Source of the DNA: Escherichia phage nepoznato
Sequence record: NC_052658.1
Length of the DNA: 64,000 nucleotides
Strand: one strand, 5' to 3'
A program made the translations under genes and the position numbers. Shown here piece by piece: positions 4,329 to 38,723 of this stretch. Below the pieces are notes generated by a model, which was not told the origin of the DNA, ran no database searches, and saw only the letters and a list, made by a program, of their open reading frames with translations. Position 1 is the first letter of the stretch, and each line of letters opens with the position of its first letter.

Positions 4329-4348
4329 TTTTGTTTATCCTCTACATG

Positions 4349-4377: not shown

Positions 4378-4383
4378 GTTATG

Positions 4384-4530
4384 TTAATCCTCTAAATCCA
4401 TCCAATTATATTTGTCACTCTTCCCGCGCTTTGTTTTATTACGCTTGTCGCCTTTGCGGATCACTTCCTCGTTCCAGGCCTTGCGGATCTTGGAAGATTG
4501 AATTTTTTCTGCGCGATTAGATGTATTCAT
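4384..4530 (-). CDS. Lys/Arg-rich small protein, about 48 aa, not in the ORF track
   Basis: ATG with RBS GAAGAGGAAA; fills the gap between a leader element and the terminator. Confidence 0.45.
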   Translation of the reverse strand: MNTSNRAEKIQSSKIRKAWNEEVIRKGDKRNKTKRGKSDKYNWMDLED

Positions 4531-4609
4531 TTTGTTTCCTCTTCATATGAGCGGCACCATTGCCGCTATATTGTTAATTTAAACTGTTTTGTAAAATTGT
4601 CAAGGTTTA

Positions 4610-4960
4610 TCATTCATAAGAGCAAGCAAGGATCACGCCTGCAATATAAAGCCAATAATTTTCCCTTTCTCGTTGGATTTTATCATCGCGGCTATTCTCT
4701 TTAATGTATCCCCAGGATGTTAACAGGCGATCAATTTCCCAATATTCGAAAGCGATATTGATATCTGATGGCAAACCTTGTAACCAACTTGCCAGGGCGC
4801 GGACTATTGATCCGTTATATCGTTTTTGATTATCAGGGTACCAGTACTCTGATTCAAAGCGGCGCATCAGTTCGGCTATCTTCTCTTTTTCGCCAGTGAT
4901 GCCATAGTCGATTGATGCTAGGATGTAACCTTTAATTTCGTTTTGTGCTTTCATGGTCAA
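4610..4960 (-). CDS. Hypothetical early protein (116 aa)
   Basis: ORF in promoter-led array. Confidence 0.6.
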   Translation of the reverse strand: MTMKAQNEIKGYILASIDYGITGEKEKIAELMRRFESEYWYPDNQKRYNGSIVRALASWLQGLPSDINIAFEYWEIDRLLTSWGYIKENSRDDKIQRERENYWLYIAGVILACSYE

Positions 4961-4966
4961 TCTCTC

Positions 4967-5188
4967 TTATTTACTTACAACCAGTTGATAACCGTTTTCT
5001 ACATTGCTAAACACTGTTAGCCCGTCGTCGCGCTCACTCATCAACAAGCAAGGCGATAACATGCGTTCGGCAGCTTTACACTCATTATAAGCGGCAGTGA
5101 TGTCTCCTGCTGCCTTGTCTTCTGTAGTAAATGTCTCGTTTACGTAAACCTGACCAGCAACAACGGCGACAATAGCAAAAGTAATCAT
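4967..5188 (-). CDS. Hypothetical early protein (73 aa)
   Basis: ORF; TTGACT-N-TATAAT promoter at about 5231-5262. Confidence 0.55.
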   Translation of the reverse strand: MITFAIVAVVAGQVYVNETFTTEDKAAGDITAAYNECKAAERMLSPCLLMSERDDGLTVFSNVENGYQLVVSK

Positions 5189-5262
5189 GATGTTTCCTTG
5201 TTAATAGTGGTTTCTCTTCTCTATAGCGCCCATTATAAAGCGCTATAACGAAAAGTCAACGA

Positions 5263-5430
5263 TTATTTTTTAAGGCTTAAAGTACCTAACTTGTCAGCAT
5301 GACGCAGACCAGGGAAGATCCATTTGCCTGATTCATCTTTTACCGGAGCTTTAAGCGTAGCGCCCAGGTTGGCGGCGTTAACTTTACGTGCAACGTTGCG
5401 AGCGGCTTCACGGGTAGCGCAAGTGATCAT
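5263..5430 (-). CDS. Hypothetical small protein, about 55 aa, not in the ORF track
   Basis: ATG downstream of leader hairpin 5457-5477. Confidence 0.45.
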   Translation of the reverse strand: MITCATREAARNVARKVNAANLGATLKAPVKDESGKWIFPGLRHADKLGTLSLKK

Positions 5431-5526
5431 GATGTTTTCCTCTTCTCTTTGTTAGGCGGTGGACCATTCCGCCGCCTTGATGTAATACAGTTTACTCTTT
5501 TTCTTTCCGGTGTCAACAATCTTTTT

Positions 5527-5754
5527 TCAGATTAATTCATCCAGGCATAACAGGCGATCAACGTTGAGATCGGTTAGGCTGATGGTTGGCACCTGGTAGG
5601 ATTCGATGTACTCAACGCTCGACCATTGCCCGAAGTTAGCGACCGCCCAGCTATTCAAGGAAGAGTGAAGATCATCCCCTTTCTTCTCGGTGATAACTGC
5701 TACTACCTGGGAAGTGCCAACGGTGCCGGATACGCGAACAATATTGATAGCCAT
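5527..5754 (-). CDS. Hypothetical early protein (75 aa)
   Basis: ORF with own promoter. Confidence 0.6.
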   Translation of the reverse strand: MAINIVRVSGTVGTSQVVAVITEKKGDDLHSSLNSWAVANFGQWSSVEYIESYQVPTISLTDLNVDRLLCLDELI

Positions 5755-5769
5755 GATTTTTCTCTCTTC

Positions 5770-5834
5770 TGTTAGGCGGGGCGCTTGTCGCCCCTATGTG
5801 ATACATCTTACACTAATTTTAAACGTTGTCAAAT
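5770..5834 (-). promoter_or_regulatory. Early promoter plus leader stem-loop (GGCGGGGCG/CGCCCC stem)
   Basis: TTGACA near 5829-5834; hairpin 5772-5790. Confidence 0.55.
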
Positions 5835-5927
5835 TATTTTCTATTTCTTCCGTAATAGCCCAATTTATGATCTAAGCTAAAACGTTTTGTTAGATAGGTA
5901 GAACGATGTTTCATTTTTATATCTCCT

Positions 5928-6167
5928 TTACATTCCAACCATCGCGGCGCGGATCGCTGTAGTGCTATACTTGAAACCGTCTGGAGTTTTATCTTGTCCA
6001 GTTTGTTCCAGGAATAACATCATATCACGGGCAGCATCATTACGATTAGTATTAGCGGCGATAAATTCTTTCGCCAACCGATATAACGATTCATCGTTAT
6101 TAATCCAAAGGCTTACATTCCAATGAGTTTTATTTTTGTGACCTAAGAACATTTTTGATTTAGCCAT
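5928..6167 (-). CDS. Hypothetical early protein (79 aa)
   Basis: ORF; leader element 6188-6225. Confidence 0.6.
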   Translation of the reverse strand: MAKSKMFLGHKNKTHWNVSLWINNDESLYRLAKEFIAANTNRNDAARDMMLFLEQTGQDKTPDGFKYSTTAIRAAMVGM

Positions 6168-6257
6168 GATGTTAATCTCTTTTTTCAGTGAGGCGGGAAG
6201 TGTTCCCGCTCTCTATGTAATACAGTTTACTCTTTTTATTCGTGCTGTCAATGCTTT

Positions 6258-6623
6258 TTATAAATCTTTTTTACGTTTAACATCGCTCGCATGACTGTAT
6301 ACAGTGATCCCATTATCACGGCAAAAACGGGAAAGATACGCGCCGCGTGAAAACTCTTTACCTTCCATATTAATAACCTTGCTAAATTCTTCCAGGGCGA
6401 CGGTATCAAAATGATCACCATAACCATATTGAAACGGAACGTTAACCACCTCGATCAGTTTACCGCCGATCTCAACGTCAACCATTAAAGAAAAATATGT
6501 ATTACCGTAGGACTGTTGAAACCAACGACGGGCGCTAATATGCACCGCCTCAATGCTGGATAGTTCAATTTTAGCCGTGTCAGCCAGGGTAGCATAAGAG
6601 GAAACATTAATATTAATAGCCAT
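6258..6623 (-). CDS. Hypothetical early protein (121 aa)
   Basis: ORF with own promoter. Confidence 0.6.
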   Translation of the reverse strand: MAININVSSYATLADTAKIELSSIEAVHISARRWFQQSYGNTYFSLMVDVEIGGKLIEVVNVPFQYGYGDHFDTVALEEFSKVINMEGKEFSRGAYLSRFCRDNGITVYSHASDVKRKKDL

Positions 6624-6641
6624 GATGATAACCTTTTTATT

Positions 6642-6701
6642 GTTGGCGGCACCATTGCCGCCCTACGTGATAAACTATAACAGAATTTTAAACAATGTCA
6701 A
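6642..6701 (-). promoter_or_regulatory. Early promoter (TTGACA-N17-TATAGT) plus conserved leader TTATCACGTAGGGCGGCAATGGTGCCGCC
   Basis: -35 at 6696-6701, -10 at 6674-6679. Confidence 0.65.
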
Positions 6702-6711
6702 ACGTTTTTTC

Positions 6712-6957
6712 TTAGTTTGCGAAATATGGCGCGGCGGCTGATGCCGTTAAGCTCCAAGTGATTTGACTATCGATCAAGTATTCTTCATTCTTGATCCGCA
6801 CGGTATCAATCGAGAAGTTACTAAAAGGTTTACTTTTAATTTTACGAACAACCGTTACACGACGGTTATTTTTCATCTCTTTTAACTGAATCCAGGCGAA
6901 ACCTTTTTCATTAACGAAAATTTCATTGTGGTTAGTGATAGATGATAAGTGTTTCAT
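6712..6957 (-). CDS. Hypothetical early protein (about 81 aa); start moved to MKHLSS
   Basis: ORF-track N-terminus (MYHVGR...) is a read-through of the leader element. Confidence 0.55.
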   Translation of the reverse strand: MKHLSSITNHNEIFVNEKGFAWIQLKEMKNNRRVTVVRKIKSKPFSNFSIDTVRIKNEEYLIDSQITWSLTASAAAPYFAN

Positions 6958-7049
6958 GATTTTTCTCTCTTCTGTTTTGAGCGGTGGACCATTCCGCCGC
7001 CCTACGTGATACATATTACTACTTTTTCAAACGTTGTCAACAATCTTTT

Positions 7050-10998: not shown

Positions 10999-11341
10999 AA
11001 ACTGCGTCTGCGTCGATGAGTTTGTGTTTGTTGTTCCGCATGTAGTCTAAGATAAGTAGACGTTTATTGTATCTGGAGAGATTATGACCCTCTTTTCCGC
11101 CATAGTCAAAATATTTTGCAAGATCTTTACACTCAAACAAAATCAGTTCGGGAGTTTCTTCACACTGGTCTGTCTGGTACACTTGACGAATGATCATGTA
11201 TACATCATCGTCTTCCGCTAAATGCTCTACTGGTCCACATCCAGCAGGAACAAATTCATAGTCCCATCGGATCAGATGTTTCTCTACTGCTTCAAAGAAA
11301 TCCATCCTTTCGTTGCGCATAATTTGAACGTCAACTAACAT
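10976..11341 (-). CDS. Hypothetical protein (121 aa)
   Basis: ORF. Confidence 0.5.
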   Translation of the reverse strand: MLVDVQIMRNERMDFFEAVEKHLIRWDYEFVPAGCGPVEHLAEDDDVYMIIRQVYQTDQCEETPELILFECKDLAKYFDYGGKEGHNLSRYNKRLLILDYMRNNKHKLIDADAVYGYWWMD

Positions 11342-12519
11342 GTTTCCTCCTGTAATGTTCCACCATAAAGTTTATAAATGTTTTGTATTGATGCCATGCA
11401 AGATAACTCCGCTGTCTCTGTGTAGCCATCTGGCATAGCATATTTGCTCACTGCTTCCGTGTGAAGGACACGCTTACAACGCTTTTCTGCATCTTTGCAT
11501 TGCTTCACAGTAGGGAAGTGCCACACTTGGCCCTGTTTCATAGTAAACACATTACGACTATTTTGTTCTTTGATACGGCGATTACTATTATTAGCAATAC
11601 CAAACTTCAGTGCACAGATAATATCTTGCTCATCGTAAATATAATTAATGTAGGCTTGTTGTTGATTTTTGTTAGCACACTGCGGACAACCTTGTCCTAT
11701 GTTTAAAAGGTTGTTTGCAGTTCCTTTTTGTTCCCCATGACTCTTACATACATATTTAAACTTACCTATAGAAGATGGTTTGGTAATCCATCCTATCCAA
11801 ACATACCCTTTCTTTTCTATTTTCTTTCTTACTTTATACGTAATCTGTTCCGCTGTATACCTATAAGATGCAGAGCAACGGCAGGGTAAGTGTCCATATT
11901 TAAGATTGCTACGCGTCATATAAAACTTACCATCACATAGTCCAGCTTTAACATATTCATCATGAGAACAAACAGGACACTGAACCATCCATACCGGATC
12001 ACACCCTTTACGTTCCCCCGTGTTGGTGAAAATAGTGCCTTCCTTAAACTTCCCTGTAGAAAAGAAATCTGCAATATGTTGATCGTCGGGTATTGTTTGT
12101 GACCTCCTTGTGTTCTCATACCTACATATAAGACAACCACTGCCATGTTTAAAACTATCAAAACTACATGTATTCCATTCATGACCATACCTACAACGTA
12201 GCATCATTTTCGTACGCGCACCTTTAAACGGTTCTACGATACCTATGATGGTAATCCCCTTAGCTTCCGCTATTGGTTTACATTCAGTAAGGTATGTTTT
12301 TAAATCTTTAATTTGACCTGCACACATAGGACAACCACTACCACGTTTAAAACTGTTAATACTTGTAGTATCCCATTTATAACCACAATGACACAACAAA
12401 TCAAGTTTTGTATTAACCCCTTTCCATTCTCCCGTCCATCCTAAGATTTGGATTTGCTTACTCTCTGCTATGGGTTGACACTCTTCTTTATATTGTTCCC
12501 ATGATTTTGGTGCTGCCAT
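11335..12519 (-). CDS. Multi-zinc-ribbon protein with C-terminal T5orf172/GIY-YIG-like domain (putative DNA-binding/nuclease)
   Basis: At least four repeats of a Cys-containing module ending GSGCPxC; C-terminal YIYDEQ...KFGIANN. Confidence 0.5.
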   Translation of the reverse strand: MAAPKSWEQYKEECQPIAESKQIQILGWTGEWKGVNTKLDLLCHCGYKWDTTSINSFKRGSGCPMCAGQIKDLKTYLTECKPIAEAKGITIIGIVEPFKGARTKMMLRCRYGHEWNTCSFDSFKHGSGCLICRYENTRRSQTIPDDQHIADFFSTGKFKEGTIFTNTGERKGCDPVWMVQCPVCSHDEYVKAGLCDGKFYMTRSNLKYGHLPCRCSASYRYTAEQITYKVRKKIEKKGYVWIGWITKPSSIGKFKYVCKSHGEQKGTANNLLNIGQGCPQCANKNQQQAYINYIYDEQDIICALKFGIANNSNRRIKEQNSRNVFTMKQGQVWHFPTVKQCKDAEKRCKRVLHTEAVSKYAMPDGYTETAELSCMASIQNIYKLYGGTLQEETC

Positions 12520-12549
12520 CTGTTGCTCCTCTTATTAATCTGATATCCA

Positions 12550-12580
12550 TACAAGAGAAAACCCGCCGAAGCGGGTTTAA
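12550..12580 (-). terminator. Hairpin AAACCCGC-CGAA-GCGGGTTT with T-rich tail on minus strand
   Basis: Direct reading. Confidence 0.55.
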
Positions 12581-12594
12581 TAAATCTCAACTTA

Positions 12595-13734
12595 TTAGAA
12601 CACGCTACCTAATGTGGTGGAACGTTGTGTTACAGGCTCCAGCACCACTCGCAGAGTGTTTCCTGGTGTAGTGCTCATCACCAGAATCTTACCACCTTCA
12701 ATCAGATCACAAGTTAGACCATCAGCAGTTGCACACAGATCAATATGTGGGTCGCCATCTTCATCCAGGATAACATAACTGTTGGTTTCCATTGCTTCCA
12801 CTTCATCATCTTTCAAACTTTGCAGATAGATGTTCAGGGAACAAGCACCCGACAAAAACTTAGTAGGGGTGAAGTCGTGCCAGTTATTGATCCAATTCAC
12901 CTTCAGGGTTTTGCCATTAGCTACGATAGAAGCCACATTCCATTTAGCATCGTTGCCTAAAGAAATACCCATCATTTCCAGACATTCTTTAAAAGTCATT
13001 TTTGGATAGAAATTCAATTCTTCTACAATACCTTGAATAACATCAAAAGACAACTCTGTGCTAACATCCCATAAACGTTGGAAGTTATCTACGTGTTTTT
13101 TATTTACCAAGTTCTTATCCAAGTAATCTAACATAGTTTCACTAGACAGTTTATCGTAATTGAAACTGTAATAGATACGACTAGGACGGTTTACAAAATA
13201 TTCCGAGATATAGCCACTATTTTTAGTGAGGATGTAAAGTTTATTTCCACTTCCTGTTCCATCCAACAAGGTCAACAGTGCTTCCTGATCTTCTTTCTTA
13301 GCGTACACTTTATCAAATTCGTCAAATAAAACAACAGCACGATCTGTAATTTTACTCATAAATTCTAAGAAGCCAGCATCTGTGTAAGGCTGTGTAACCA
13401 AAATGGTTGGAATACCTAAACCTTCTGTGGACATTAGAGACATGCTAATCAGTTTAGCTAACATCGTCTTACCACTGCCCTTTGTCCCTGTCAGTAACAC
13501 CCCAGTATTTTTACCTTCTTTACTACGACGAGCAAATGTTTTAATAACATGTGCGGCGCGGTCTTTAGTTTCCCCATAAAGAGTGTTCGGAAGAGAGAAA
13601 CTTTCGCCACGCACTAAAGAGTAGTTACCGTGCGGATCGCAGTTGACAACCCAAACTCCAGCAGGAAGTTTATTAGCTTCAACACCATATTCCTTATTTA
13701 CAACAGCCACATCTCCAAAAATAGTGTATTTCAT
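12595..13734 (-). CDS. P-loop NTPase (AAA-type ATPase-like)
   Basis: Walker A GTKGSGKT; Walker B VVLFDEFD. Confidence 0.65.
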   Translation of the reverse strand: MKYTIFGDVAVVNKEYGVEANKLPAGVWVVNCDPHGNYSLVRGESFSLPNTLYGETKDRAAHVIKTFARRSKEGKNTGVLLTGTKGSGKTMLAKLISMSLMSTEGLGIPTILVTQPYTDAGFLEFMSKITDRAVVLFDEFDKVYAKKEDQEALLTLLDGTGSGNKLYILTKNSGYISEYFVNRPSRIYYSFNYDKLSSETMLDYLDKNLVNKKHVDNFQRLWDVSTELSFDVIQGIVEELNFYPKMTFKECLEMMGISLGNDAKWNVASIVANGKTLKVNWINNWHDFTPTKFLSGACSLNIYLQSLKDDEVEAMETNSYVILDEDGDPHIDLCATADGLTCDLIEGGKILVMSTTPGNTLRVVLEPVTQRSTTLGSVF

Positions 13735-22926: not shown

Positions 22927-23480
22927 ACGTAGCTGTTATTGCTCAAGCTATTGATTACTATGGACGGTTTGCGGAGATGTTGGAAGTCCCTTATCTTGTA
23001 GATGCAGATATCCTTGCATATACATTACCAGAAGGTAAAGAGGATCGCCCCTTGGGGCATCCTAATGGGAAGTTTTATGTTGCCAGTGCCGAGCAATCAT
23101 TCTTGCAAATGGAAAAGGATGGCTACGAGTTTATCGCTGGTCATCCCTACATGGCCCTGACACCATGTTACCGCACAGAGGAAGTGTTGGATGATTCTCA
23201 CTTCAACATCTTCTTGAAGCTGGAGTTGATTGAGTTCTATCCCAGCTTTGGTGAAGTGAAAGAGTATGCCGAAGAAATGCGATACTTCTTCTGGACCTAC
23301 TACAAAGTCCAAACAAGAATTGTAGAAACAGAAATAGGGCTTGACGTGGAAGACATGAATGGTTTAGAATTAGGGTCATTCGGAACAAGATTGTCCCCAC
23401 AAGATCATCCATATATTTATGCAACAGCCATAGCCGAACCTCGTGCATCTATGGCAATTAACAGGAGGAATCATGATTAA
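22923..23480 (+). CDS. Hypothetical protein (185 aa)
   Basis: ORF. Confidence 0.55.
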   Translation: MNVAVIAQAIDYYGRFAEMLEVPYLVDADILAYTLPEGKEDRPLGHPNGKFYVASAEQSFLQMEKDGYEFIAGHPYMALTPCYRTEEVLDDSHFNIFLKLELIEFYPSFGEVKEYAEEMRYFFWTYYKVQTRIVETEIGLDVEDMNGLELGSFGTRLSPQDHPYIYATAIAEPRASMAINRRNHD

Positions 23481-24858
23481 TAAATTTGCCCGTAAACAGG
23501 AAGTTGCTGAAGCAGCACGTCGCGCTGGTGTGTATGACAAATTGTGTGAAGGTATTGTGAAGGTGTATGGCTGGGAGGGAGAAGATGATCCAACCTGTTC
23601 AGGTGATTTTGCAATGAACGATATGACCTTCCCATATATTTCCTACAATGTCTCCACTGGTGAAATAAACGGTGTAACCAGCACCAGTGTTGATCGTTAT
23701 CCAGACGCAGAACAAACCACAGGAGGTTACATGTTAGATTTGATTCTTAAGAAATCAGGGTTATTGGGAATCGAAGACGTTTTCGTAGATGCAGATAGTT
23801 TATCATTAGGAGATGTTGTTAAACTACTGGTAGACTTTAGGTTTGCAACAGGTAAAAGCTTCTGGAAGCCAGAAGATGCTGAACGTTTGAAGACAATCGA
23901 TCCAAGTATGTATGAACTGCCACAATATAAAGATAAACAATTCCGCAAGGTTATCTTCTTTGATCGTCAAGCAGGCTTAGATGCAATGCATATTGAAGTT
24001 GGGGATTTACCACGCCCACACTCTGCTGCTACTGGTGATCGCGGCCTTGTAGAAGTCACGGCTCAAGAATTTAAAAATATGTTTGCTGCGAAATACGATG
24101 AAGCTGCGCCTGTGCCAAGTATTGAGGAGCAAGAGGAAGAACAGTTTGTAGCGGAAGATACTGCATTTGAATATCTGCCGAACACAGGTGTTATGCCTTC
24201 GGAAGATTTCGTGCAGGTTCGCTTCAACAATGGTCAAACAGATGTTGCTAAGGGAACAGTGTTCACTTGGAATATCGACAATCTGGAAGAGTGGGCGATT
24301 AAAGAATACTTCATTCTCCCGCGCACGGCAAAATACAACTATAATAATGGTGGACACCGCCCTTGTGGTGGTCACGTAGAAGTTCTCTTTCGTGACGGAA
24401 CTACGGATAGTGGATCGGCTACGCATTTCACTTGGGGTCATGTTGGATATGATCGGGATATTGTTGGTTGGCTTCCAACTAACAACCCTAAACCACGTTA
24501 CCGTAAGCCTCGTAAGAAGCCTCCGGTAGGTAAGAAGAGTGTCGTTCGTGTCCTCTACACTACGCAACAGACCTACACATTTAAAAATGTGGTAGACGTG
24601 CAAGTAACCGAGGAGCGAGTTTATATCCAATATGATCGTGAAGTTACAGAGGGTATCAAAGAATCGGTTACTACCGAAATTGAAAATAAGCTTGTTATGG
24701 CAATCATTGTGGAAGAAAGTAAAGTAGAGAACGGTAAAGCCTATACTGTTCGTGATAGCTTCTTGCGTAATATCGATGGAACCTGGGATTACAATGGACA
24801 CGATGGGACCGCTGTGAAGAACGGTAAGATCATGGGAAGACAATTCCTCTCCAAATGA
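23473..24858 (+). CDS. Hypothetical protein (about 461 aa); start moved to MINKF
   Basis: RBS AGGAGG before ATG at 23473. Confidence 0.55.
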   Translation: MINKFARKQEVAEAARRAGVYDKLCEGIVKVYGWEGEDDPTCSGDFAMNDMTFPYISYNVSTGEINGVTSTSVDRYPDAEQTTGGYMLDLILKKSGLLGIEDVFVDADSLSLGDVVKLLVDFRFATGKSFWKPEDAERLKTIDPSMYELPQYKDKQFRKVIFFDRQAGLDAMHIEVGDLPRPHSAATGDRGLVEVTAQEFKNMFAAKYDEAAPVPSIEEQEEEQFVAEDTAFEYLPNTGVMPSEDFVQVRFNNGQTDVAKGTVFTWNIDNLEEWAIKEYFILPRTAKYNYNNGGHRPCGGHVEVLFRDGTTDSGSATHFTWGHVGYDRDIVGWLPTNNPKPRYRKPRKKPPVGKKSVVRVLYTTQQTYTFKNVVDVQVTEERVYIQYDREVTEGIKESVTTEIENKLVMAIIVEESKVENGKAYTVRDSFLRNIDGTWDYNGHDGTAVKNGKIMGRQFLSK

Positions 24859-24961: not shown

Positions 24962-25843
24962 ATGAAAGATTTGTACCAAGATGTTTTTTCTTTTTTAGAT
25001 CGCACTTCAGAAACATACACTAGAGAGAATGCAAACAAACCTTCCCACCTTGTTAACACGCACAGGGATCTCTTGGCGGGGATTTTAAGCAAACATATGG
25101 CAATGACACAGATACTGCCAAAAAACTTGTCAGAATGGCATACAGAAGGTTTTGGACATATTCACGACTTGGATTATCTGCTCTCTCCTCTTACAAACTG
25201 TTGTCTTGTTAATTATCAAGATATGTTAGAGAATGGTTTTAAGATCGGTGCTGCACAGATAGAAAAACCAAAATCTATTGGAGTAGCTACTACAGTGCTA
25301 ACTCAAATCATCCAAGCTGTTGCCTCCAGTCAGTATGGAGGTCAGACGTGTGCGCACATTGATAAAGGTCTTAGTCCTTATGTTGAAGCCAGTTTCCTTA
25401 AAAACATGGAGATAACCAAACGTCGCTACGGTTGTTATGCAAGGAAAGAAGCCCTAGAAATGACCGAACAAGATGTATATGACGCTATGCAAACTCTTTT
25501 GTATCAGGTTAACACTTTAATGAGTGTTAATGGACAATCTCCTTTTATTACAATCAGTATGGGTCTGGATACCTCTGTTTTTGGCAGAATGATCACAGCT
25601 AACTATCTTAAAGTGCATAGTAACGGTCTAGGTAAAGATCATGTAACGCCTGTATTCCCTAAAGTTATTTTCTTTTTACAAGAAGGTGTTAACATGAAAC
25701 CTAGTGATCCTAACTACGACCTTAAGCAACAAGCTTTGGCATGTTGTGCTGATCGTATTTATCCAGATTTTATTTCTGTTCCTTTGAACAAAGAAGTTAC
25801 GGGATCAGCAGATGGTACCGTTACGAGTATGGGTAAACTATAA
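24962..25843 (+). CDS. nrdD: Anaerobic ribonucleoside-triphosphate reductase, N-terminal portion
   Basis: Continuity with 26575-27546, which carries the glycyl-radical C-terminus; combined length about 616 aa. Confidence 0.65.
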   Translation: MKDLYQDVFSFLDRTSETYTRENANKPSHLVNTHRDLLAGILSKHMAMTQILPKNLSEWHTEGFGHIHDLDYLLSPLTNCCLVNYQDMLENGFKIGAAQIEKPKSIGVATTVLTQIIQAVASSQYGGQTCAHIDKGLSPYVEASFLKNMEITKRRYGCYARKEALEMTEQDVYDAMQTLLYQVNTLMSVNGQSPFITISMGLDTSVFGRMITANYLKVHSNGLGKDHVTPVFPKVIFFLQEGVNMKPSDPNYDLKQQALACCADRIYPDFISVPLNKEVTGSADGTVTSMGKL

Positions 25844-26574
25844 CTGCTCATGTAAAATCTGCCTAAACGGGGGAACTCTCAACAGAGACAATCCCGTGCT
25901 AAACGTAACAGAACTCCCAACACAGAAGAAGGGGGTACTGATATGAGAAAACAAATTCGTGATTTTGAAGGGTATGAAATTGACGAGCTTGGAAATGTTT
26001 ATTGTACCAGGTATAAGGATGAAAGAATCCTTCGCTCGTGGGAAGAAATAAACACAGGATACCAACTTGTCAGAATACGTAAAAACAAGAAAACTGTTTG
26101 CTTTCGGGTGCACAGACTTGTAGCTGAAGCGTTTTTACCCAATCCAGACAATTTACCTTATGTGAAGCATAAAGGTGACAATAGGAAAGACAACAGTGTA
26201 TACAATCTTGAGTGGGGATCTTGTCCAGACAACACGCAAGAGGGTTACGATAATAACTGTTATGCTTTCTACACAAGGTGTCACAGTGTAAAAGCTACTC
26301 ATAAGGCTACTGGTGAAGTTTTTTACTTTAAAAGTCTGAGATGTTGTGCTGACGCTTTAGGGTTGGACAGAAAAAGAATATCTGCAATCTTAAAACAAGG
26401 AGCACCAAATAATTATGATTATGAGTTCTGTTACGAAATGCCTAACGACTAGCTGTGATGAATGTAGCAGCGTAGGGTGTAAGCCTATGACACCCCAAAT
26501 GGTAGACATGCTTTAAGCATGAAGATATAGTCTGATCTGCATGGTGACATGCAGCAGCACGTAATGGTGCGGGA
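25844..26574 (+). mobile_element. Intervening element splitting nrdD, carrying a homing endonuclease gene; probable group I intron (splice sites not determined)
   Basis: Endonuclease ORF sits between the two nrdD halves. Confidence 0.5.
25943..26452 (+). CDS. HNH homing endonuclease
   Basis: YEIDELGNVY, VHRLVAEAF, KHKGDNRKDNSVYNLEW, C-terminal DNA-binding module. Confidence 0.8.
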   Translation: MRKQIRDFEGYEIDELGNVYCTRYKDERILRSWEEINTGYQLVRIRKNKKTVCFRVHRLVAEAFLPNPDNLPYVKHKGDNRKDNSVYNLEWGSCPDNTQEGYDNNCYAFYTRCHSVKATHKATGEVFYFKSLRCCADALGLDRKRISAILKQGAPNNYDYEFCYEMPND

Positions 26575-27546
26575 GTGGCCTTGCGAGCCACTTTGAACAT
26601 AATGTGTAGAAGTTTCTTGTCATACTATGCAACAGAGCAAGGAGAAAAATATGATGGACGATTCAACCTTGGAGTAGTTTCTATCAACTTGCCTCTGATT
26701 GCTGCGGAAGCGAGAAGTAAAGGAGAATCTTTCACCGATCTTCTTAATAAACATATGGAGATAGCCTACGATGCTCACATGCTACGTGTAAACCGTATCA
26801 GACATACCAAAGCATCTGAAAACCCTATTCTTTTCATGGAAGGGGCTTTAGCGCGTTTAAATGCCAATGATGAAATTGGTGTTTTGTTTGAAGGTGGTTA
26901 TGCTTCTATTAGTATTGGTTATGTAGGTCTTGCCGAAGCTTTGGAAATCCTTTATCCAGAAGAAAAAGATAAAAAGGAACTTGGTAAAAACATTCTGCAA
27001 CATATGAAAGATGTGTGTGCTGTGTTTAAAGAGCGATCTAAGCTGGCATTTAGTCTCTATGGAACTCCAGCAGAATCTTTGTGCTATAAGTTTGCAACAG
27101 CTTTAAATGAAAAATACCCAGGTTTGGTAGAAAGAGACTATCTTACTAACTCTTTTCATCAACCTGTATGGTTGGTAACAAATCCTTTTGAAAAATGGGA
27201 TTATGAAGCAGGTTTTGCACAGATTAGTAATGGTGGTAACATAAGTTATGTCGAAACACCAAACTTAAAGAATAACTTAGAAGCTTTGGAGACTTTAGTA
27301 GACTACGCTTATGAACATATTCACTATTTTGGTATTAATCAGCCCGTGGATCAATGCTTTAAGTGTGGTTTTCATGGAGAATTTAAGGCAACGGCTAAAG
27401 GGTTTGAGTGTCCTGATTGTGGCAACCATGAAGAAGAAACTATTTCTGTAGTTAGACGTGTATCAGGGTATCTTTCTGCTCCTAATTCACGGCCTTATAA
27501 CAAAGGTAAAATGCAGGAAGTTTTGCAAAGGGAGAAACATCTTTGA
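26575..27546 (+). CDS. nrdD: Anaerobic ribonucleoside-triphosphate reductase, C-terminal portion (true exon start uncertain)
   Basis: CxxC...CxxC zinc site and glycyl-radical motif RVSGYL. Confidence 0.75.
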   Translation: MALRATLNIMCRSFLSYYATEQGEKYDGRFNLGVVSINLPLIAAEARSKGESFTDLLNKHMEIAYDAHMLRVNRIRHTKASENPILFMEGALARLNANDEIGVLFEGGYASISIGYVGLAEALEILYPEEKDKKELGKNILQHMKDVCAVFKERSKLAFSLYGTPAESLCYKFATALNEKYPGLVERDYLTNSFHQPVWLVTNPFEKWDYEAGFAQISNGGNISYVETPNLKNNLEALETLVDYAYEHIHYFGINQPVDQCFKCGFHGEFKATAKGFECPDCGNHEEETISVVRRVSGYLSAPNSRPYNKGKMQEVLQREKHL

Positions 27547-28233: not shown

Positions 28234-28839
28234 ATGCAACATAGTGTAGTAGTCAACATGCCGAATAGTGGGGATAAATCTTTTGGTGTCCCTGCTAAAA
28301 AAGTGTGGAAAGCCCATTTTCATCTTACTTTATCTAACGTTAGTTCTGAAGAGTTGATGAAAGCAGCTAAGATTATTGGTGCCAAATGCACAACAATTGA
28401 TTTACATCGGGATACAAAGTCTCAACGTGATCGTATGTTAACAAAGTATCAAAGCGATCTCGACACTACTTTAATGTTGCAGTGTGTAGAAAAACTTGAG
28501 AATGCAGGTTTCAATGTTGTTCGTTACAAACTGGAACGAATGTTTAAACATGTTGCCTGTGTTCTTTTCATGGATCTAAGTAAAGAAAATTATGGAGAAG
28601 TTCACATTAAGACTTCAGCAAGTGATCCCGAAGTAGAAACAAACTTCTTCCGTATTTCTTCTAATGCTGAAGAAATTGATTACCGATTTTATAATGCTCG
28701 CTTATATTCCGCAGAAGATAAGTTGCGTTTCAATGAAGCGTATGATATGCTCTTGAACAGTGGGATACAGATAAAAGGCTACCACATAGAACAAGTGGTA
28801 GTGGACAGTAATCTTAACTTAGACGCATGGTGGGCTTAA
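28234..28839 (+). CDS. Hypothetical protein (201 aa); single H-x-T-x motif (HLTL), possible 2H-phosphoesterase-like
   Basis: Weak motif only; gene context. Confidence 0.3.
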   Translation: MQHSVVVNMPNSGDKSFGVPAKKVWKAHFHLTLSNVSSEELMKAAKIIGAKCTTIDLHRDTKSQRDRMLTKYQSDLDTTLMLQCVEKLENAGFNVVRYKLERMFKHVACVLFMDLSKENYGEVHIKTSASDPEVETNFFRISSNAEEIDYRFYNARLYSAEDKLRFNEAYDMLLNSGIQIKGYHIEQVVVDSNLNLDAWWA

Positions 28840-28840
28840 T

Positions 28841-29497
28841 ATGACTATTAAACATATCTCTTTTGATGTATGGAACACACTGATCACAGCAAACTCCAAT
28901 TACGCAGACATGCGAGCCTGGACTATCGCAAAATATGGAGATATTACGGAAGTGGAAGCAAGAGCAGCTTATAAGAAGATCAAAAAGGAACTGGATAATG
29001 CAGCACTTCAAGGCAAAGCCGAGTGTGCAGCATACGCCTGGGAAAGACTTGGTTCTGAACTTGGGATAACACCTTGGAAGTCTGCAAAGCTTCGTTTCGA
29101 GTGTGAACAGTGGTTCCTTAAGTTTCCACCACACGTAGCCGTGGATCTGCCGATGTACTTGCTGTATCTTTCGGGACGTTATGATTTGAGTATTAAGAGC
29201 AATACCAACTTTATATCAGGGGATATCCTGCGTCGTGCTTGTAAGTTTGATAGTTGGAATTGTTTTGAGTTCACCCATTTCTCGGATGAAGCTTTACTTT
29301 GTAAACCAGATCCGCGATTCTTTGCTCGCACGCTCACATATTCTCCGATCCCTCTGTTAGGGCACGAAGTATTGCACGTAGGCGATAGTGAAGAATATGA
29401 TGGAAAATGTGTTGACTTAGGATTTAACTTCTGTCATATTAAGAACCCTAACGACTTACTAGAGAAACTTAAAAGAGGAGAAATTGTAAATGCGTAA
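28841..29497 (+). CDS. HAD-superfamily hydrolase-like protein
   Basis: N-terminal FDVWNTL resembles HAD motif I variant. Confidence 0.4.
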   Translation: MTIKHISFDVWNTLITANSNYADMRAWTIAKYGDITEVEARAAYKKIKKELDNAALQGKAECAAYAWERLGSELGITPWKSAKLRFECEQWFLKFPPHVAVDLPMYLLYLSGRYDLSIKSNTNFISGDILRRACKFDSWNCFEFTHFSDEALLCKPDPRFFARTLTYSPIPLLGHEVLHVGDSEEYDGKCVDLGFNFCHIKNPNDLLEKLKRGEIVNA

Positions 29498-30317
29498 TCA
29501 AACTCAAATTTTTGCAAATAAATTTGATGACCTGGAAACTGCTACTTTTGATATCCAAGATTATTCAAAATTGAAATTTGGTAGTAACCAAGCCGCGCGT
29601 CGTATGGGTAAAGAATTGGCACTTCAGTTTTTTGCTCAAGTGGCAATGAAACATATTGGGGAACAATTTGTTATCATTCCTTCTCCTTACAACCATGTGC
29701 ATAATGCTGCAACAATGATGACAGATCATTTTATTAATTACTTTAACATGTTGCAATCACAATATAATCAAGGTCGTTCAGCAGAACTGGACATTATTCA
29801 TCGTAAAGTTAGCTATATCAACGATTATGGTTTCTTGGATAAAGCTAGTCGTAAGAAACTTATTGATGGGGATACATTCTACTGCAACAAAGAATTCTGG
29901 GGTGATAAGAAGCTTGTATTCATTGATGATGTAAATATCACTGGAACGCATGAAGACAAACTGATTGAGATTCTTGATGAAAATCAAGTTAAAAATGATG
30001 TTTACTTCCTGTATTTTGCAAAATATGAAGGTAATCAAGCAGATACCGAAGCTAAACTGAATTTTAACTACATTAATACACCAGAAGCGTTTGTTAAAAT
30101 GATTAATGAAGAACGTGATGCACAGTGTCTTGTTCGTCCTATTAAATATCTTATGGGCCAAAATCATGAAGACTTCAAAATCATTCTTAGCCAATTGCCA
30201 CACTACTATGTAGAGCAACTTTTCTTCGGCTGTTTAGCTGAAGGCTACAATCGAATTGCAAAGTATACTGAAAACTTTGAATTCTTGGATCGTTACACAA
30301 AACAACACATTCTGTAA
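29490..30317 (+). CDS. Type I phosphoribosyltransferase (PRTase) fold protein
   Basis: PRPP-binding motif LVFIDDVNITGT. Confidence 0.6.
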   Translation: MRNQTQIFANKFDDLETATFDIQDYSKLKFGSNQAARRMGKELALQFFAQVAMKHIGEQFVIIPSPYNHVHNAATMMTDHFINYFNMLQSQYNQGRSAELDIIHRKVSYINDYGFLDKASRKKLIDGDTFYCNKEFWGDKKLVFIDDVNITGTHEDKLIEILDENQVKNDVYFLYFAKYEGNQADTEAKLNFNYINTPEAFVKMINEERDAQCLVRPIKYLMGQNHEDFKIILSQLPHYYVEQLFFGCLAEGYNRIAKYTENFEFLDRYTKQHIL

Positions 30318-30331
30318 TAAGGAGCTAAAAA

Positions 30332-30805
30332 ATGCTTAAAATGAAAACAGGTAATCTTATTGATGCCGCTAAAGCAGGTGAAGTAACTGTTATTGCTCAT
30401 TGTTGCAATTGTATGTGTAATATGGGGGCAGGAATTGCTCCGCAAATTAAACGAGCATTCCCTTATGCATATGCGGCGGATTTAGACACAATGGCTGGTG
30501 ATCAGAGTAAGTTAGGTTCTTTTAGTTTAGGGGTGCCAGACGAACAATCAGACCCTTTGGTATATAATCTATACGGGCAATACCGTTACGGATATAATGC
30601 TAAAGGTCGTCAGTTGGACTATGATGCCCTATACGATGCACTAATAGCTATGGCTAATGATTTGCTTCTCCGTGACCAAAAATGTAAGATCGGTTTACCT
30701 ATGATTGGAGCGGGACATGCCGGAGGTAATTGGGCTATCATCCAAGTGATGATTGAAGAAACTTTAGTAAAAACAGGTCACGATGTGACTATTTATAAAC
30801 TTTAA
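30332..30805 (+). CDS. Macro domain protein (ADP-ribose binding/hydrolase family)
   Basis: Gly-rich blocks IAHCCNCMCNMGAGIA and LPMIGAGHAGG. Confidence 0.55.
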   Translation: MLKMKTGNLIDAAKAGEVTVIAHCCNCMCNMGAGIAPQIKRAFPYAYAADLDTMAGDQSKLGSFSLGVPDEQSDPLVYNLYGQYRYGYNAKGRQLDYDALYDALIAMANDLLLRDQKCKIGLPMIGAGHAGGNWAIIQVMIEETLVKTGHDVTIYKL

Positions 30806-31039: not shown

Positions 31040-31100
31040 GTGTTGACATAGTTCTTAAAAAGAGTAAGATATATCACATGAAGCGGGGAATAGTTCCCCG
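31038..31100 (+). promoter_or_regulatory. Early-type promoter (TTGACA) plus conserved leader TATCACATGAAG and hairpin CGGGGAA-TAG-TTCCCCG, plus-strand copy
   Basis: Same architecture as the leftward early promoters. Confidence 0.55.
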
Positions 31101-31118: not shown

Positions 31119-32093
31119 ATGCAACTCGGTTTCCCAATTATTGATGTAGTTGTTTTAGTTGGTATTTTGGCATTGTCTATTGGTATCGATTTCTTTGGTC
31201 ATAAAGAGAATAAAGAAATTGGAATTAAATCTGCTTTGCTTTGGTCTATTTTTTGGATTGCTTTAGCTTTAGGATATTACGCATTCATTTGGGTAGAACA
31301 TGGTAAAGAGTTTGCCGCGCTTTTCCTAAGTGGCTATGTGTTGGAAAAGAGTCTTTCTGTAGATAACCTGATGGTGTTCATGGCAATTTTTGCAAGCTTT
31401 GGAATTAAGAGCACACATCTCCAACATAAGATTTTACTTTGGGGGATTGCAGGAGCCATTGTCTTCCGAGGTATTTTTGTTGCAGCAGGCACCGCTTTGT
31501 TTAACCTTCATTGGTCGGTACAAGTGTTGTTCGGTTTGATTGTAGCTTGGTCTGCCGTAGCTATCATCAAAGGTGGTGACGAAGAAGAGGATATTGATTA
31601 CTCTAAGCATTGGGCTGTTCGTTTAGTAGGTAAAGTTCTGCCTGTGCACAATGCACTGGATGGTGAAAAGTTCATTACCATTAAGAATGGTATTAAATAT
31701 GCAACTCCTGCTCTTCTTTGTGTGTTTGTTATTGAGCTTACAGATATTGTCTTCTCTTTTGATTCAGTTCCGGCTGTGATCGGTGTGACACAAGAACCTC
31801 TGCTGGTTTATTCTGCAATGCTGATGGCTGTTCTTGGTTTACGTGCGCTTTTCTTTGTGTTAAGTGTAGCTGTGAAATATCTGGTTCACTTAGAGAAAGC
31901 TGTTGCTGTGGTTCTGGTGTTTGTTGGTGTTAAACTTATGTATCACCCGTTCGGTGAAACACTTCATGCCAAGTGGTCATTCCTCCCGCATGATATTTCC
32001 CCTAACGTAAGTCTGATGATTGTTCTAGGCACATTAGCTCTTGGTGTTATTGCAAGCTTTATCTTCCCTGAAAAAGAAGAAGCTGCTGTTTAA
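31119..32093 (+). CDS. terC: TerC-family integral membrane protein
   Basis: EKSLSVDNLMVF and ELTDIVFSFDSVPA; multiple TM helices. Confidence 0.75.
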   Translation: MQLGFPIIDVVVLVGILALSIGIDFFGHKENKEIGIKSALLWSIFWIALALGYYAFIWVEHGKEFAALFLSGYVLEKSLSVDNLMVFMAIFASFGIKSTHLQHKILLWGIAGAIVFRGIFVAAGTALFNLHWSVQVLFGLIVAWSAVAIIKGGDEEEDIDYSKHWAVRLVGKVLPVHNALDGEKFITIKNGIKYATPALLCVFVIELTDIVFSFDSVPAVIGVTQEPLLVYSAMLMAVLGLRALFFVLSVAVKYLVHLEKAVAVVLVFVGVKLMYHPFGETLHAKWSFLPHDISPNVSLMIVLGTLALGVIASFIFPEKEEAAV

Positions 32094-32100
32094 TAGATGA

Positions 32101-32125
32101 GCCTCCTTCGGGAGGCTATTTTATA
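32101..32125 (+). terminator. Rho-independent terminator AGCCTCC-TTCG-GGAGGCT + T-run
   Basis: Direct reading. Confidence 0.7.
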
Positions 32126-33720: not shown

Positions 33721-34311
33721 ATGCATACCGAGAGAGACTTGCAACTCTTGTGGTGGGAAGTGATGCAGGAAATAAAAGAAGATTTTCCTGTTTACTACAA
33801 CATGTTACGTGAAGCAGGATATAAAGCTTGCGTTAGAAACAAAGTGAATAACTCTTTTGGTTGGTGCAATTACCGAGATAAGATTGTTGTTGTAAATTGG
33901 CACTTGCATAAGAACTCCACAAGAGATATGATCGTGGATACAATGAAGCACGAAATTGCTCACGCTATTGATGGTTGTATGGGTAAGTTTAGTAGGCATG
34001 GTGCTCATTGGCAAAAACTGGCAGCAGAATTAGGGGCTAATCCTAAAGCCACTTCCAAAGAGCCGTTGAACCACGAATATAAATATGTTCTTGTTCTGGT
34101 AGATAGGTTTGCGACAAGATGTGTTAGAGGTTATAATCGTAAACCTAATCGCATGTACCCAGGTAAGCAACCTAACATGTGGTTGAAATCAGATAAAGAA
34201 GGAACTGAAGGAAAATTATGGTTGTATAAATGGGATGATTGGGTTAAAGTAGCTAAAGAGTACGGTGTTTCACCATATATAAGAGATGCAGAAGAGGAGA
34301 ATGAAGAATGA
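33721..34311 (+). CDS. SprT-like zinc metallopeptidase domain protein
   Basis: HEIAH (HExxH) in SprT-like context. Confidence 0.55.
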   Translation: MHTERDLQLLWWEVMQEIKEDFPVYYNMLREAGYKACVRNKVNNSFGWCNYRDKIVVVNWHLHKNSTRDMIVDTMKHEIAHAIDGCMGKFSRHGAHWQKLAAELGANPKATSKEPLNHEYKYVLVLVDRFATRCVRGYNRKPNRMYPGKQPNMWLKSDKEGTEGKLWLYKWDDWVKVAKEYGVSPYIRDAEEENEE

Positions 34312-35420
34312 CAAGTCCATTTTTAAAAGCAGCTACTGGTGGTCAGAAGAAGTCTGAAATGAGTGTATTCGCTGCAACAACAGATGCAAGTAAATCTGTA
34401 TTCGCTCCAAGTGTGTTAGATGCCAGTCCTGTTTATGCACCAGCAGCACCGCAAGAAGTTCCAGTTTTGCCTGCTATGACCCGACAAGAGATCGAAGAGA
34501 TTGGGGCAGAGGCAGGAACAACCTTGCGTTCCTTGAATGCCGAGGTATTAAAACATCAACGTAGTAATCAAGGCGATCAGATGAGTGAACGACTCACAGC
34601 TTTGATTAAACAGGCAAAACAACTTGATCCAAATTCTATTAAACAAAGCAAGGGTATTACTAAACTCATTAAAAAAGTTATGGGTATGAAAGAAGACCTG
34701 TTCGGGGAGTTTGATAATGTTAATAACCGTATTGAAGAGTTGGTAAAGAACCTTCAAATGGATATTCGCAAAGAAGAAGATTCCTTGGTATATCTTGAAA
34801 AGCTACATCAAGCTATTGGACAATATGCTGCAAGTTTGAACCGAGATATGCAGCTTCTAACAGCAACCTATGAAAAAGAAGAACAAGCTTTGGCTGCTCT
34901 TCCAGAAGATGCAGTAGAACAGCGACAAGTGATCCGAGATACTTTGGATCTTCTGGAGATTCGTATTGCAGATTTAAAAGCATTGCGCCTACTGTGTGTC
35001 CAAATGGGACCGCGTGTACAAGGTATGCAAAAAGTTTCTGCAAGCTTAATGCGATCTGCGCGTAACATAGTAAATAATGTTATTCCTGCTTACTCTGCTA
35101 ACTTCTCAATGTATATCGAGAGTTTACGTCAAATGAAAGCAGCAGAGACGCAGAATAACGTTCTTGATGAATTTAACCTGGCAATTAAACTGGGTAGCGA
35201 TCTTGCCACACAGAATCAGATCGAAGCAGCAGCACTGGCTAACCGTCAAGTGTTGGATATTGAAACTCTGCGTCACGATCAGGAAAACTTGGTTAAGATG
35301 TTGGAAGAAACTAACCGCATCAATACGGAAGCCCGTGCTGCTCGTGTTGATTATATTAATGAAGTTCAATCTCTGGAAGACGGGATGGTAGCTGCTGTGA
35401 AACGAGGGCTTGGTAAATGA
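34308..35420 (+). CDS. telA: TelA-like (toxic anion resistance family) protein
   Basis: N-terminal GDQMSERLTALIKQAKQLDPN resembles the TelA/YaaN region; coiled-coil rich; Ter context. Confidence 0.55.
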   Translation: MTSPFLKAATGGQKKSEMSVFAATTDASKSVFAPSVLDASPVYAPAAPQEVPVLPAMTRQEIEEIGAEAGTTLRSLNAEVLKHQRSNQGDQMSERLTALIKQAKQLDPNSIKQSKGITKLIKKVMGMKEDLFGEFDNVNNRIEELVKNLQMDIRKEEDSLVYLEKLHQAIGQYAASLNRDMQLLTATYEKEEQALAALPEDAVEQRQVIRDTLDLLEIRIADLKALRLLCVQMGPRVQGMQKVSASLMRSARNIVNNVIPAYSANFSMYIESLRQMKAAETQNNVLDEFNLAIKLGSDLATQNQIEAAALANRQVLDIETLRHDQENLVKMLEETNRINTEARAARVDYINEVQSLEDGMVAAVKRGLGK

Positions 35421-36815: not shown

Positions 36816-37610
36816 ATGTCCGAGAAAATCAGCCTGAAAAAACGTCAAGAAAACCTTGCTTTCTCTCTGAAAAAGAATAAGAACCTGAATGAAGGTAAGA
36901 TTGTTCTTCGTGTAGCATGTGCTCTAGATATTTCTGGTAGTATGCATGGTCTATATTCTAGTGGGGTAGTGAGTGATTTTGTAGGTAAACTGCTTCCTTT
37001 TGGTATGCTGTTCGACGATAATCAACAAATTGATATGTGGGCCTTCAATACGAGTTCCCAAGAGCTTACTCCAGCAACAGCAGATGTTTACGATGACTAT
37101 GTTGGTAAATGTATGCGTAATGTTCGTATCGGAGGTGGAACAAATTACGCCCCTGTAATGGCGGATATCTACGATGAGTATTTTGGCACTGTTACTAAAT
37201 ATATTACCACTAAACAAGTGGTACAAGAGGAGGCTCCAAAGAAAGGCTTCTTTAATCGTCTGCTTGGTAAAACTGAAACAGTGTCTGTAGAGCGTGAAAA
37301 AGTTGTAGCTGTATCTGAACCAGGTGCTGACGTTACCCCTGGTGTTGTATTCTTCCAGACGGATGGTGAGAATGGTGATCCTAGTGCTGTTCGTCGTCTT
37401 ATCGAAGAGAATAAGAATAAACCTATTTATTGGTTCATGGTTGGCGTTGGTAATGAGAAGTTCGGCTTCCTGAAAGAACTGGCAAATGCTTATGATAATG
37501 TTGGTTTTATTGGCATTAAAGATTTAGACTTGACAGATTCAGAGCTTTATGACAAACTCTTATCTGAAGAGTTCGGAGAGTGGGTTGTTAAAGTAGGTGC
37601 TAAAAAATGA
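36816..37610 (+). CDS. von Willebrand factor A domain protein (TerY-like)
   Basis: MIDAS motifs DISGSM, GGTNYA, TDGENGD; N-terminal ISLKK as in TerD. Confidence 0.65.
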   Translation: MSEKISLKKRQENLAFSLKKNKNLNEGKIVLRVACALDISGSMHGLYSSGVVSDFVGKLLPFGMLFDDNQQIDMWAFNTSSQELTPATADVYDDYVGKCMRNVRIGGGTNYAPVMADIYDEYFGTVTKYITTKQVVQEEAPKKGFFNRLLGKTETVSVEREKVVAVSEPGADVTPGVVFFQTDGENGDPSAVRRLIEENKNKPIYWFMVGVGNEKFGFLKELANAYDNVGFIGIKDLDLTDSELYDKLLSEEFGEWVVKVGAKK

Positions 37611-38120: not shown

Positions 38121-38723
38121 ATGACTGATAAAATTTCCCTGAAAAAAGGCTCTAGCGAAAAAATTTCCCTGAAGAAAGTTGCTCCGGCTCTGAAAGAACT
38201 GCGCCTGGAATTCTCTTGGAAATCTGATTCTAAACTGGATCTGGATGTAAGTGCACTGGTTTGTCGTCACAATGCCGCTGGCAATCCTGAAATGCTGTCT
38301 GCACGTCACCTGGTTTGCTATGCTAACAAGTTTGATCCTGAACGTTCTACCTTCGCTGGTGACGATGTTCGTGATGGAACTGGCAGCATGGAGCAGATTG
38401 ATATTACTCTGGCTAAAATCTCTCCTGATGCACAAGAGATTGCCTTTGTTCTGACCATTGATGATGATACAGGTCTGAAACGTTTTGGTCATGCTTCTGA
38501 AGGTATGCTTAAAATCTTTGACTCCGAGCGCAATGTGGAAATTCTGGATTTTGACTTCCTGGCTCCTGAAGTAGCTGGCAACACAATCTGCCACGTGGCT
38601 TCCTTGGTTCGTGAAGATGGGGAATGGAAGCTGAAAGCATATGGTGTAGGTAAAGCTGGTCTGGATATTTGTGATGTGGTCATGGCCTTCGGTGGTAAAA
38701 AAGAATGGTATGAATGTCCATAA
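38121..38723 (+). CDS. terD: TerD-family protein
   Basis: Repeated KISLKK N-terminus; GEWKLKAYGVGKAGLD as in E. coli TerD GEWKFRAVGQGYAGGL. Confidence 0.85.
   Translation: MTDKISLKKGSSEKISLKKVAPALKELRLEFSWKSDSKLDLDVSALVCRHNAAGNPEMLSARHLVCYANKFDPERSTFAGDDVRDGTGSMEQIDITLAKISPDAQEIAFVLTIDDDTGLKRFGHASEGMLKIFDSERNVEILDFDFLAPEVAGNTICHVASLVREDGEWKLKAYGVGKAGLDICDVVMAFGGKKEWYECP

Follow-up and report, generated by a model that had tools for sequence, protein, structure and literature searches.

The 64,000-nucleotide (nt) stretch of Escherichia phage nepoznato that we analyzed (NC_052658.1; hereafter, the window) carries, at positions 28234 to 30805, four consecutive plus-strand genes. They encode a protein of 201 residues (here called U201), a HAD-superfamily hydrolase, a type I phosphoribosyltransferase (PRTase), and a stand-alone macrodomain protein (Table 1). 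A first-pass annotation made from the letters of this DNA had read the hydrolase, the PRTase, and the macrodomain protein as a candidate pathway for a nucleotide- or ADP-ribose-derived metabolite. The open reading frame (ORF) listing gives exactly the gene boundaries and the strand that it had reported. A GAGGAG ribosome-binding site lies 8 nt 5' of the U201 ATG, the U201 and HAD genes are separated by 1 nt, the HAD and PRTase genes overlap by 8 nt, and the PRTase and macrodomain genes are 14 nt apart. Genes for the anaerobic ribonucleotide reductase proteins NrdD and NrdG lie upstream of the four genes, and TerC, TelA, TerF-type vWA, and TerD genes all lie within 9 kb downstream of the HAD-PRTase pair. 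Pfam matches to these four Ter proteins bear out the adjoining Ter module of the first-pass annotation. The region shows 98% identity to phAPEC8-like myophages (genus Phapecoctavirus, subfamily Stephanstirmvirinae), and because of this identity the earlier label of "virulent phage" is correct.

Table 1. Genes of the four-gene group and of the region downstream of it
Feature	Coordinates	Strand	Evidence or remarks
201-residue protein (U201)	28234-28839	+	No curated family match
HAD-superfamily hydrolase, 218 aa	28841-29497	+	Weak PF00702 match and motifs I to IV; first gene of the HAD-PRTase pair
Type I PRTase, 275 aa	29490-30317	+	PF15610 (PRTase_3, ComF-like)
Stand-alone macrodomain protein, 157 aa	30332-30805	+	PF01661; T4 Tk.4/AdfM homologue, DarG2/TARG1/SCO6735 class
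Small hydrophobic protein, 73 aa	30818-31039	+	phrog_16065
TerC-family integral membrane protein	31119-32093	+	PF03741, E 1e-40
SprT-like metalloprotease	33721-34311		Overlaps the TelA start
TelA-like protein	34308-35420	+	PF05816, E 3e-33
vWA protein, TerF C-terminal type	36816-37610	+	PF10138, E 2e-37
TerD-domain protein	38121-38723	+	PF02342, E 3e-28

The HAD-PRTase pair and its Ter linkage

The PRTase matches PF15610 with 142 bits against a cut-off of 28.7 (E 2e-41), over model positions 9 to 264 of 264. It has the type I PRTase fold with the pattern of a phosphoribosyl pyrophosphate (PRPP) loop (four hydrophobic residues, DD, any two residues, TGxT), followed by a C-terminal helical domain of about 90 residues. 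The PRPP loop, LVFIDDVNITGT, which the first-pass annotation had quoted, is intact, and its residues D146, D147, T151, G152, and T153 are invariant across 40 homologues. The other motif quoted there, FDVWNTL, is motif I of the HAD protein. Searches of NCBIfam and of PDB sequences with the PRTase gave nothing, and none of the 120 PRTase_3 homologues listed carries an extra domain, macro or HAD fusions included.

Matches of the HAD protein to curated models are weak (PF00702, which is below its cut-off, and TIGR02252), and its only relative in the PDB, 2om6, shares the sequence FDVWNTL. An alignment of 38 relatives encoded next to PRTase_3 genes shows motifs I ([FL]D.W.T), II (SNT), III (KP), and IV (GDxxxD). 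The corresponding residues of the phage protein (D9, S120-N-T, K154-P, and G-D182-xxxx-D187) are kept in the family. The earlier assignment of three of the proteins to the HAD, PRTase, and macrodomain families holds, with PF15610 far over its cut-off, PF01661 just over, and HAD motifs I to IV recognizable.

We surveyed 42 viral or plasmid loci (below, viral loci) and 80 bacterial loci with a PRTase_3 relative, searching their ORFs with every protein of the window; bacterial Ter genes were counted within 10 kb. A HAD homologue lies directly upstream of the PRTase_3 gene in 40 of the 42 viral loci and 73 of the 80 bacterial loci, and the commonest spacings are overlaps of 4 nt and 1 nt. Ter genes are frequent in the same loci and often abut the pair: TerD is nearby in 18/42 viral and 64/80 bacterial loci, TelA in 14/42 and 49/80, and TerC in 19/42 and 45/80, while a TerF-type vWA gene is found in 15/42 viral loci and was not detected in the 80 bacterial loci. 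The corresponding counts are 8/42 viral and 0/80 bacterial for the macrodomain protein and 4/42 and 0/80 for U201. Grouping the PRTases at 60% identity gave 30 lineages, with an adjacent HAD gene in 22 of them and a Ter gene within 10 kb in 18. One example from the Bacteroidota has the order RmuC, three TerD genes, two vWA genes, AIM24, PP2C, a protein kinase, HAD, and PRTase. The Bacteroidota context matches the context published for the Ter system (TerD, vWA, PP2C, and kinase).

A Ter "biosynthetic module" was predicted by Anantharaman, Iyer & Aravind in 2012. According to the passage on it in PMC11994780, the module has two or five enzymes that always include a PRTase and a HAD protein, and its predicted product is given there, after the same 2012 paper, as a pyrimidine-derived ribonucleoside. 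The phage locus resembles the two-enzyme form in several respects: the PRTase belongs to PF15610, the HAD gene is adjacent and overlapping, the cluster holds TerD, TerC, TelA, and a TerF-type vWA protein, and the arrangement recurs in many viral contigs as well as in genomes of Bacteroidota. This match is the outcome of the comparison with Ter-associated biosynthetic enzymes that the first-pass annotation had proposed. The locus differs from the two-enzyme module in that its carrier is a virulent coliphage and its genes are scattered over about 10 kb among phage ORFans, and from the five-enzyme module in that it lacks the ATP-grasp enzyme, the TIM-barrel lyase, and the second PRTase. Phage-borne Ter systems with PRTase and HAD "signal biosynthesis" enzymes are also described for Acinetobacter jumbo phage vB_AbaM_ME3 and for "certain other related smaller tailed phages" (Iyer et al. 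2021, PMC7824862). ME3 encodes a protein with a fold matching that of U201; it belongs to another phage group and has another host.

Based on the recurrence of the HAD-PRTase pair, its linkage to Ter genes, and the published predictions, we therefore regard the phage pair as a member of a known, predicted system. As judged from sequence and gene order, the HAD and PRTase_3 genes form one translationally coupled unit, the two-enzyme Ter "biosynthetic module." This system was already noted in phages in 2021, and the findings alone leave the current understanding unchanged.

Other identities of the PRTase were considered. The first-pass annotation had named an ordinary salvage enzyme as the outcome that would speak against its pathway. 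A purine or pyrimidine salvage PRTase (OPRT, HGPRT, UPRT, or APRT) was rejected, as no salvage family is matched in Pfam or NCBIfam and structural identity is at most 19%; the GenBank label "orotate PRTase" is unsupported. Comparisons of family and structure also rule out an enzyme of the NAMPT/NAPRT type or the PRPP-synthetase type. The PRTase has 9% identity to Helicobacter pylori ComFC (PDB 7p0h), from which it differs in lacking the N-terminal zinc finger and in having the extra C-terminal helical domain, and the DNA uptake context of ComFC is unrelated to that of the phage enzyme. Searches of literature full text gave nothing on PF15610, PRTase_3, or "PRTase ComF-like," and functional studies of these genes in Stephanstirmvirinae were not found.

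Among bacteria, the PRTase_3 homologues with the highest identity (38 to 40%) come from Rhizobium and Ensifer (L055-L065 and L004), where they are mostly plasmid-borne and lack Ter genes nearby. On one plasmid, the neighboring genes encode a glycosyltransferase, a radical SAM protein, an epimerase, a GMC oxidoreductase, and a UbiA prenyltransferase. Rhizobium phages also carry the pair without Ter genes (L002, positions 4519 to 6855; L003, positions 5312 to 6786 and 11135 to 12762). In Rhizobium phage RHph_TM2_3B, the pair is two genes upstream of a gene for a nicotinamide mononucleotide (NMN) adenylyltransferase/NUDIX protein, and in another Rhizobium phage it is a few kilobases from NadR-like and PnuC genes.

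The macrodomain protein and U201

The macrodomain protein matches PF01661 with 23 bits, just over the cut-off of 22. Its top model is DarG in both NCBIfam (E 4.5e-9) and PADLOC (E 1.6e-10), and its PDB matches are led by SCO6735 (E 1e-12), followed by BT1257, DarG (5m31, E 9e-7), and TARG1. BLASTP aligns it to T4 Tk.4 with 37% identity (E 2e-21). Deletion of tk.4 makes T4 sensitive to DarTG2, and Tk.4 has hence been named AdfM (bioRxiv 10.1101/2025.11.20.689424); the AdfM protein of PhiKZ strips DarT2-added ADP-ribose from DNA (PMC13309987). The window protein is, like T4 Tk.4/AdfM, PhiKZ gp104 AdfM, and DarG2, a macrodomain that keeps the equivalent of DarG N22 and the glycine-rich loops. It stands alone at about 155 residues and lacks the DarT-binding domain of DarG. 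In the alignment to Thermus aquaticus DarG, N22 corresponds to the conserved N26, and K80 corresponds to Q83. The most economical reading, based on homology, is that the protein is a putative orphan DarG2-type ADP-ribosyl glycohydrolase of the Tk.4/AdfM family.

Homologues of the macrodomain protein are found in 2,928 phage records from many families, compared with 155 phage records for the PRTase. Near a PRTase_3 gene, they occur only in the Stephanstirmvirinae-like loci (L001, L007, and L009-L013) and, at a distance of 6 kb, in one further locus (L018). This corresponds to 2 of the 30 lineages, and in L010 and L011 other genes are inserted between the PRTase and macrodomain genes. T4 tk.4 has neither a PRTase nor a HAD neighbor. 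The small hydrophobic protein of 73 residues is encoded directly 3' of the macrodomain gene in the same seven Stephanstirmvirinae-like loci and in none of the other loci surveyed.

U201 has no match in Pfam, NCBIfam, or the PDB. An exhaustive profile search collected 257 cluster representatives, which share the invariant motifs HxHxT, KxTxIDL, RxKxE, ExHxK, SxN, FxNxR, and DxWW, and we take U201 to be the founder of an alpha/beta domain family that is uncurated and has no entry in Pfam or the PDB. Members of the family are fused to NUDIX, HD_4, MazG-like, and helix-turn-helix domains, and these fusions suggest that U201 has a ligand or substrate derived from a nucleotide. On other phage contigs, U201 relatives are encoded near Acb1 and NADAR, DUF4326 and SIR2, the kinases AAA_28 and AAA_33, and dCMP deaminase, among others; the remaining contexts are uninformative. 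On one metagenomic phage-like contig (L143, positions 3620 to 5488), a U201-NUDIX fusion gene is followed after 13 nt by a microbial-type PARG gene and then by DNA polymerase A. On another contig (L045, positions 6001 to 7021), the gene for a stand-alone U201 homologue overlaps that for Acb1 (anti-CBASS), with NADAR 4 kb downstream. Some U201 homologues are labeled "MazG-like pyrophosphatase" in GenBank, and these labels were probably carried over from fusion proteins.

Near the HAD-PRTase pair, U201 is found only in close relatives, which make up 1 of the 30 lineages, and on one contig it lies 14 kb away from the Ter-pair cluster. Two U201 alignments (A2 and A6) were too divergent for locus scans, with 4 loci in the viral scan and 3 in the metagenome scan, and tblastn with one family member gave no match in plasmids. 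U201 probably does not belong to the Ter pair.

The PADLOC "AbiEi" models PDLC02277 and PDLC02279 match U201 with an E value of 5e-13 and its family with E values down to 2e-30, in 62 of 63 members. The Pfam AbiEi families and PDB chains are not matched, and the U201 contexts with Pfam-annotated neighbors show no AbiEii partner. Otherwise, the family has no AbiEi-like features, and the structure model of U201 begins with a beta strand and lacks the N-terminal winged helix-turn-helix.

One pathway or three separate functions

Since the macrodomain protein and U201 are rare near the pair (2/30 and 1/30 lineages, respectively, and no bacterial locus), and since other genes can be inserted between the PRTase and macrodomain genes and U201 can lie 14 kb from the pair, we regard both as independent of the pair. 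The "trio" is a juxtaposition and not one pathway. What stands of the pathway proposed in the first-pass annotation is its core, a recurring HAD-PRTase pair linked to Ter genes, while the macrodomain protein, a Tk.4/AdfM homologue, and U201 fall outside it. It is probable that the four genes are three separate things (the Ter pair, the macrodomain protein, and U201) that adjoin one another in a block of early or accessory genes.

Several observations weigh against this reading. In typical HAD phosphatases, an Asp two positions after the nucleophilic Asp of motif I serves as the general acid/base. The HAD family studied here keeps the nucleophilic Asp but has Trp at the second position in 37 of 38 members and Tyr in the remaining one. 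At this position the whole family departs from canonical HAD phosphatases, and simple phosphatase chemistry is therefore not assured. To our knowledge, no PF15610 enzyme and no Ter-linked HAD protein has been characterized so far. In the Rhizobiaceae and in several phages, the pair occurs without Ter genes. No Pfam match to TerB was found among the ORFs tested between 27994 and 39630, which also sets the locus apart from the two-enzyme module, and TerB is said to be "almost exclusively present" with Ter biosynthetic modules in the same passage of PMC11994780. The macrodomain protein has Gln at the position of the DarG and PhiKZ AdfM Lys (K80 and K78, respectively), a feature that it shares with T4 Tk.4 and SCO6735, and an identity of 37% does not guarantee a specificity like that of Tk.4. 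Finally, the order HAD-PRTase-macrodomain is the same across two genera, Phapecoctavirus and Justusliebigvirus, and the PRTase and macrodomain genes overlap in phi92; some local co-regulation may therefore exist.

This conserved gene order and the gene overlap in phi92 also speak in favor of a single pathway, in which the HAD protein, the PRTase, the macrodomain protein, and perhaps U201 would make, recycle, or detoxify an ADP-ribose- or NAD-derived metabolite or defense signal. The NMN adenylyltransferase/NUDIX gene near the pair in RHph_TM2_3B would fit such a pathway, as would the NUDIX fusions of U201 relatives and their proximity to PARG, Acb1, NADAR, and SIR2 in some phages. However, none of the 80 bacterial loci has the macrodomain protein, and of the 35 viral loci outside the subfamily a single one does, at a distance of 6 kb. 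The lack of macro and HAD fusions among the listed PRTase_3 homologues, the great excess of phage records with the macrodomain protein over those with the PRTase, and the exclusion of NAMPT/NAPRT and PRPP-synthetase types for the PRTase also argue against it, and we consider a single pathway very improbable. Known phage pathways for NAD reconstitution are made of other enzymes: NARP1 consists of Adps, which is PRPP-synthetase-like, and Namat, and NARP2 consists of Nampt and Nmnat, with Namat and Nampt being type II PRTases. The predicted likeness of the four genes to NARP1 and NARP2 is in the use of PRPP and ADP-ribose chemistry by a phage to counter defense, but none of the four proteins matches a PRPP-synthetase-like, NAMPT/NAPRT-type, or NMNAT family, and the comparison with phage NAD reconstitution that the first-pass annotation had proposed thus shows no resemblance. 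Another possibility is that the pair is an effector that consumes or cleaves a nucleotide or PRPP, like the PRTase toxins of retrons and of ShosTA/PsyrTA, and serves as a killing or exclusion arm of the phage Ter module or as a drain on a host immune nucleotide. The match of the PRTase to these conflict-system PRTases is far weaker than that to PF15610 and ComF, its PRPP loop and overall architecture are those of a transferase, and the pair is stable in bacterial chromosomes within Ter operons with no evident immunity gene, all of which makes an effector quite unlikely.

A separate question concerns the macrodomain protein itself, which might serve ADP-ribosylation by the phage or clear ADP-ribose-1''-phosphate from RNA repair, as Poa1p does, rather than oppose DarT2. 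The GenBank and CDD annotation "Macro_Poa1p_like," a weak partial match to the ADP-ribose 1''-phosphate phosphatase 6lfu (E 0.002), and the replacement of the DarG catalytic Lys with Gln are consistent with this. However, the protein is far closer to SCO6735, BT1257, DarG, and TARG1 than to Poa1p, and its homologue Tk.4, with the same Gln, is genetically required against DarTG2. We consider a function other than anti-DarT2 to be unlikely.

In the reading that we favor, with three separate functions, the PRTase would join PRPP to a base-like acceptor, for which the literature favors a pyrimidine-like base. The HAD protein would then remove the 5'-phosphate from the PRTase product to give a diffusible, ribonucleoside-like ligand, which would act on the membrane-associated Ter proteins. 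The payoff for a lytic phage would likely be a remodeled envelope or ion homeostasis or the exclusion of competing phages. Independently of the pair, the macrodomain protein would probably strip DarT2-added ADP-ribose from phage DNA, as its homology suggests. U201 would be a nucleotide-linked domain whose place beside the pair is specific to this lineage. A more speculative proposal, which we hold to be doubtful, has two parts: U201 would found a new phage domain family that binds or processes a nucleotide-derived molecule of the NAD/ADP-ribose or alarmone type and would work in anti-defense with the macrodomain protein; separately, the pair would make a ribonucleoside messenger, specified by the phage, through which the Ter membrane proteins exclude competing phages. 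If either half of this proposal is true, the gene block would be a compact set of conflict functions based on nucleotides and not a part of housekeeping metabolism.

The product of the Ter "biosynthetic module" has been a standing question since the 2012 prediction. A virulent Escherichia coli phage with the minimal pair beside TerC, TelA, TerF-vWA, and TerD is a compact, tractable system, which could identify the Ter metabolite and address why lytic phages carry Ter genes. The macrodomain protein adds one lineage to the newly described AdfM anti-DarT2 family. U201 is the only genuinely uncharted element of the four; its family, uncurated and recurrently fused to NUDIX, HD, and MazG domains, may merit a separate description.

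Neighboring genes

The SprT-like gene between TerC and TelA is present in only some relatives (L001, L011, and L012) and not in phi92-like phages. The TerC gene is flanked by a promoter-like sequence (TTGACA-16-TAAGAT, positions 31043 to 31070) and by a GC-rich hairpin with a T-rich tail (positions 32100 to 32117). This faintly suggests that TerC may have its own promoter and terminator, and hence separate transcription; a promoter scan found no enrichment over shuffled sequence.

Upstream of the four genes, nrdD (span 24962-27546) is split into two ORFs (24962-25843 and 26575-27546) by an insert that carries the ORF of an HNH-type homing endonuclease (25943-26452). The insert also contains a group I intron-like RNA (Rfam RF00028, 26315-26554; E 1.7e-7), whose score of 39 bits falls short of the gathering score of 50. 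In the close relative SKA64, nrdD is uninterrupted, and in phi92 it is annotated as a spliced variant. An ORF of 471 residues farther upstream (23443-24858), which has no Pfam match at an E value of ≤0.01, is annotated as "class III ribonucleotide reductase" in SKA64. Records named as Campylobacter, Acinetobacter, and Pseudomonas phages share 78 to 98% identity with the E. coli Phapecoctavirus genes described here. This may reflect mistaken host labels or an exceptionally wide host range.

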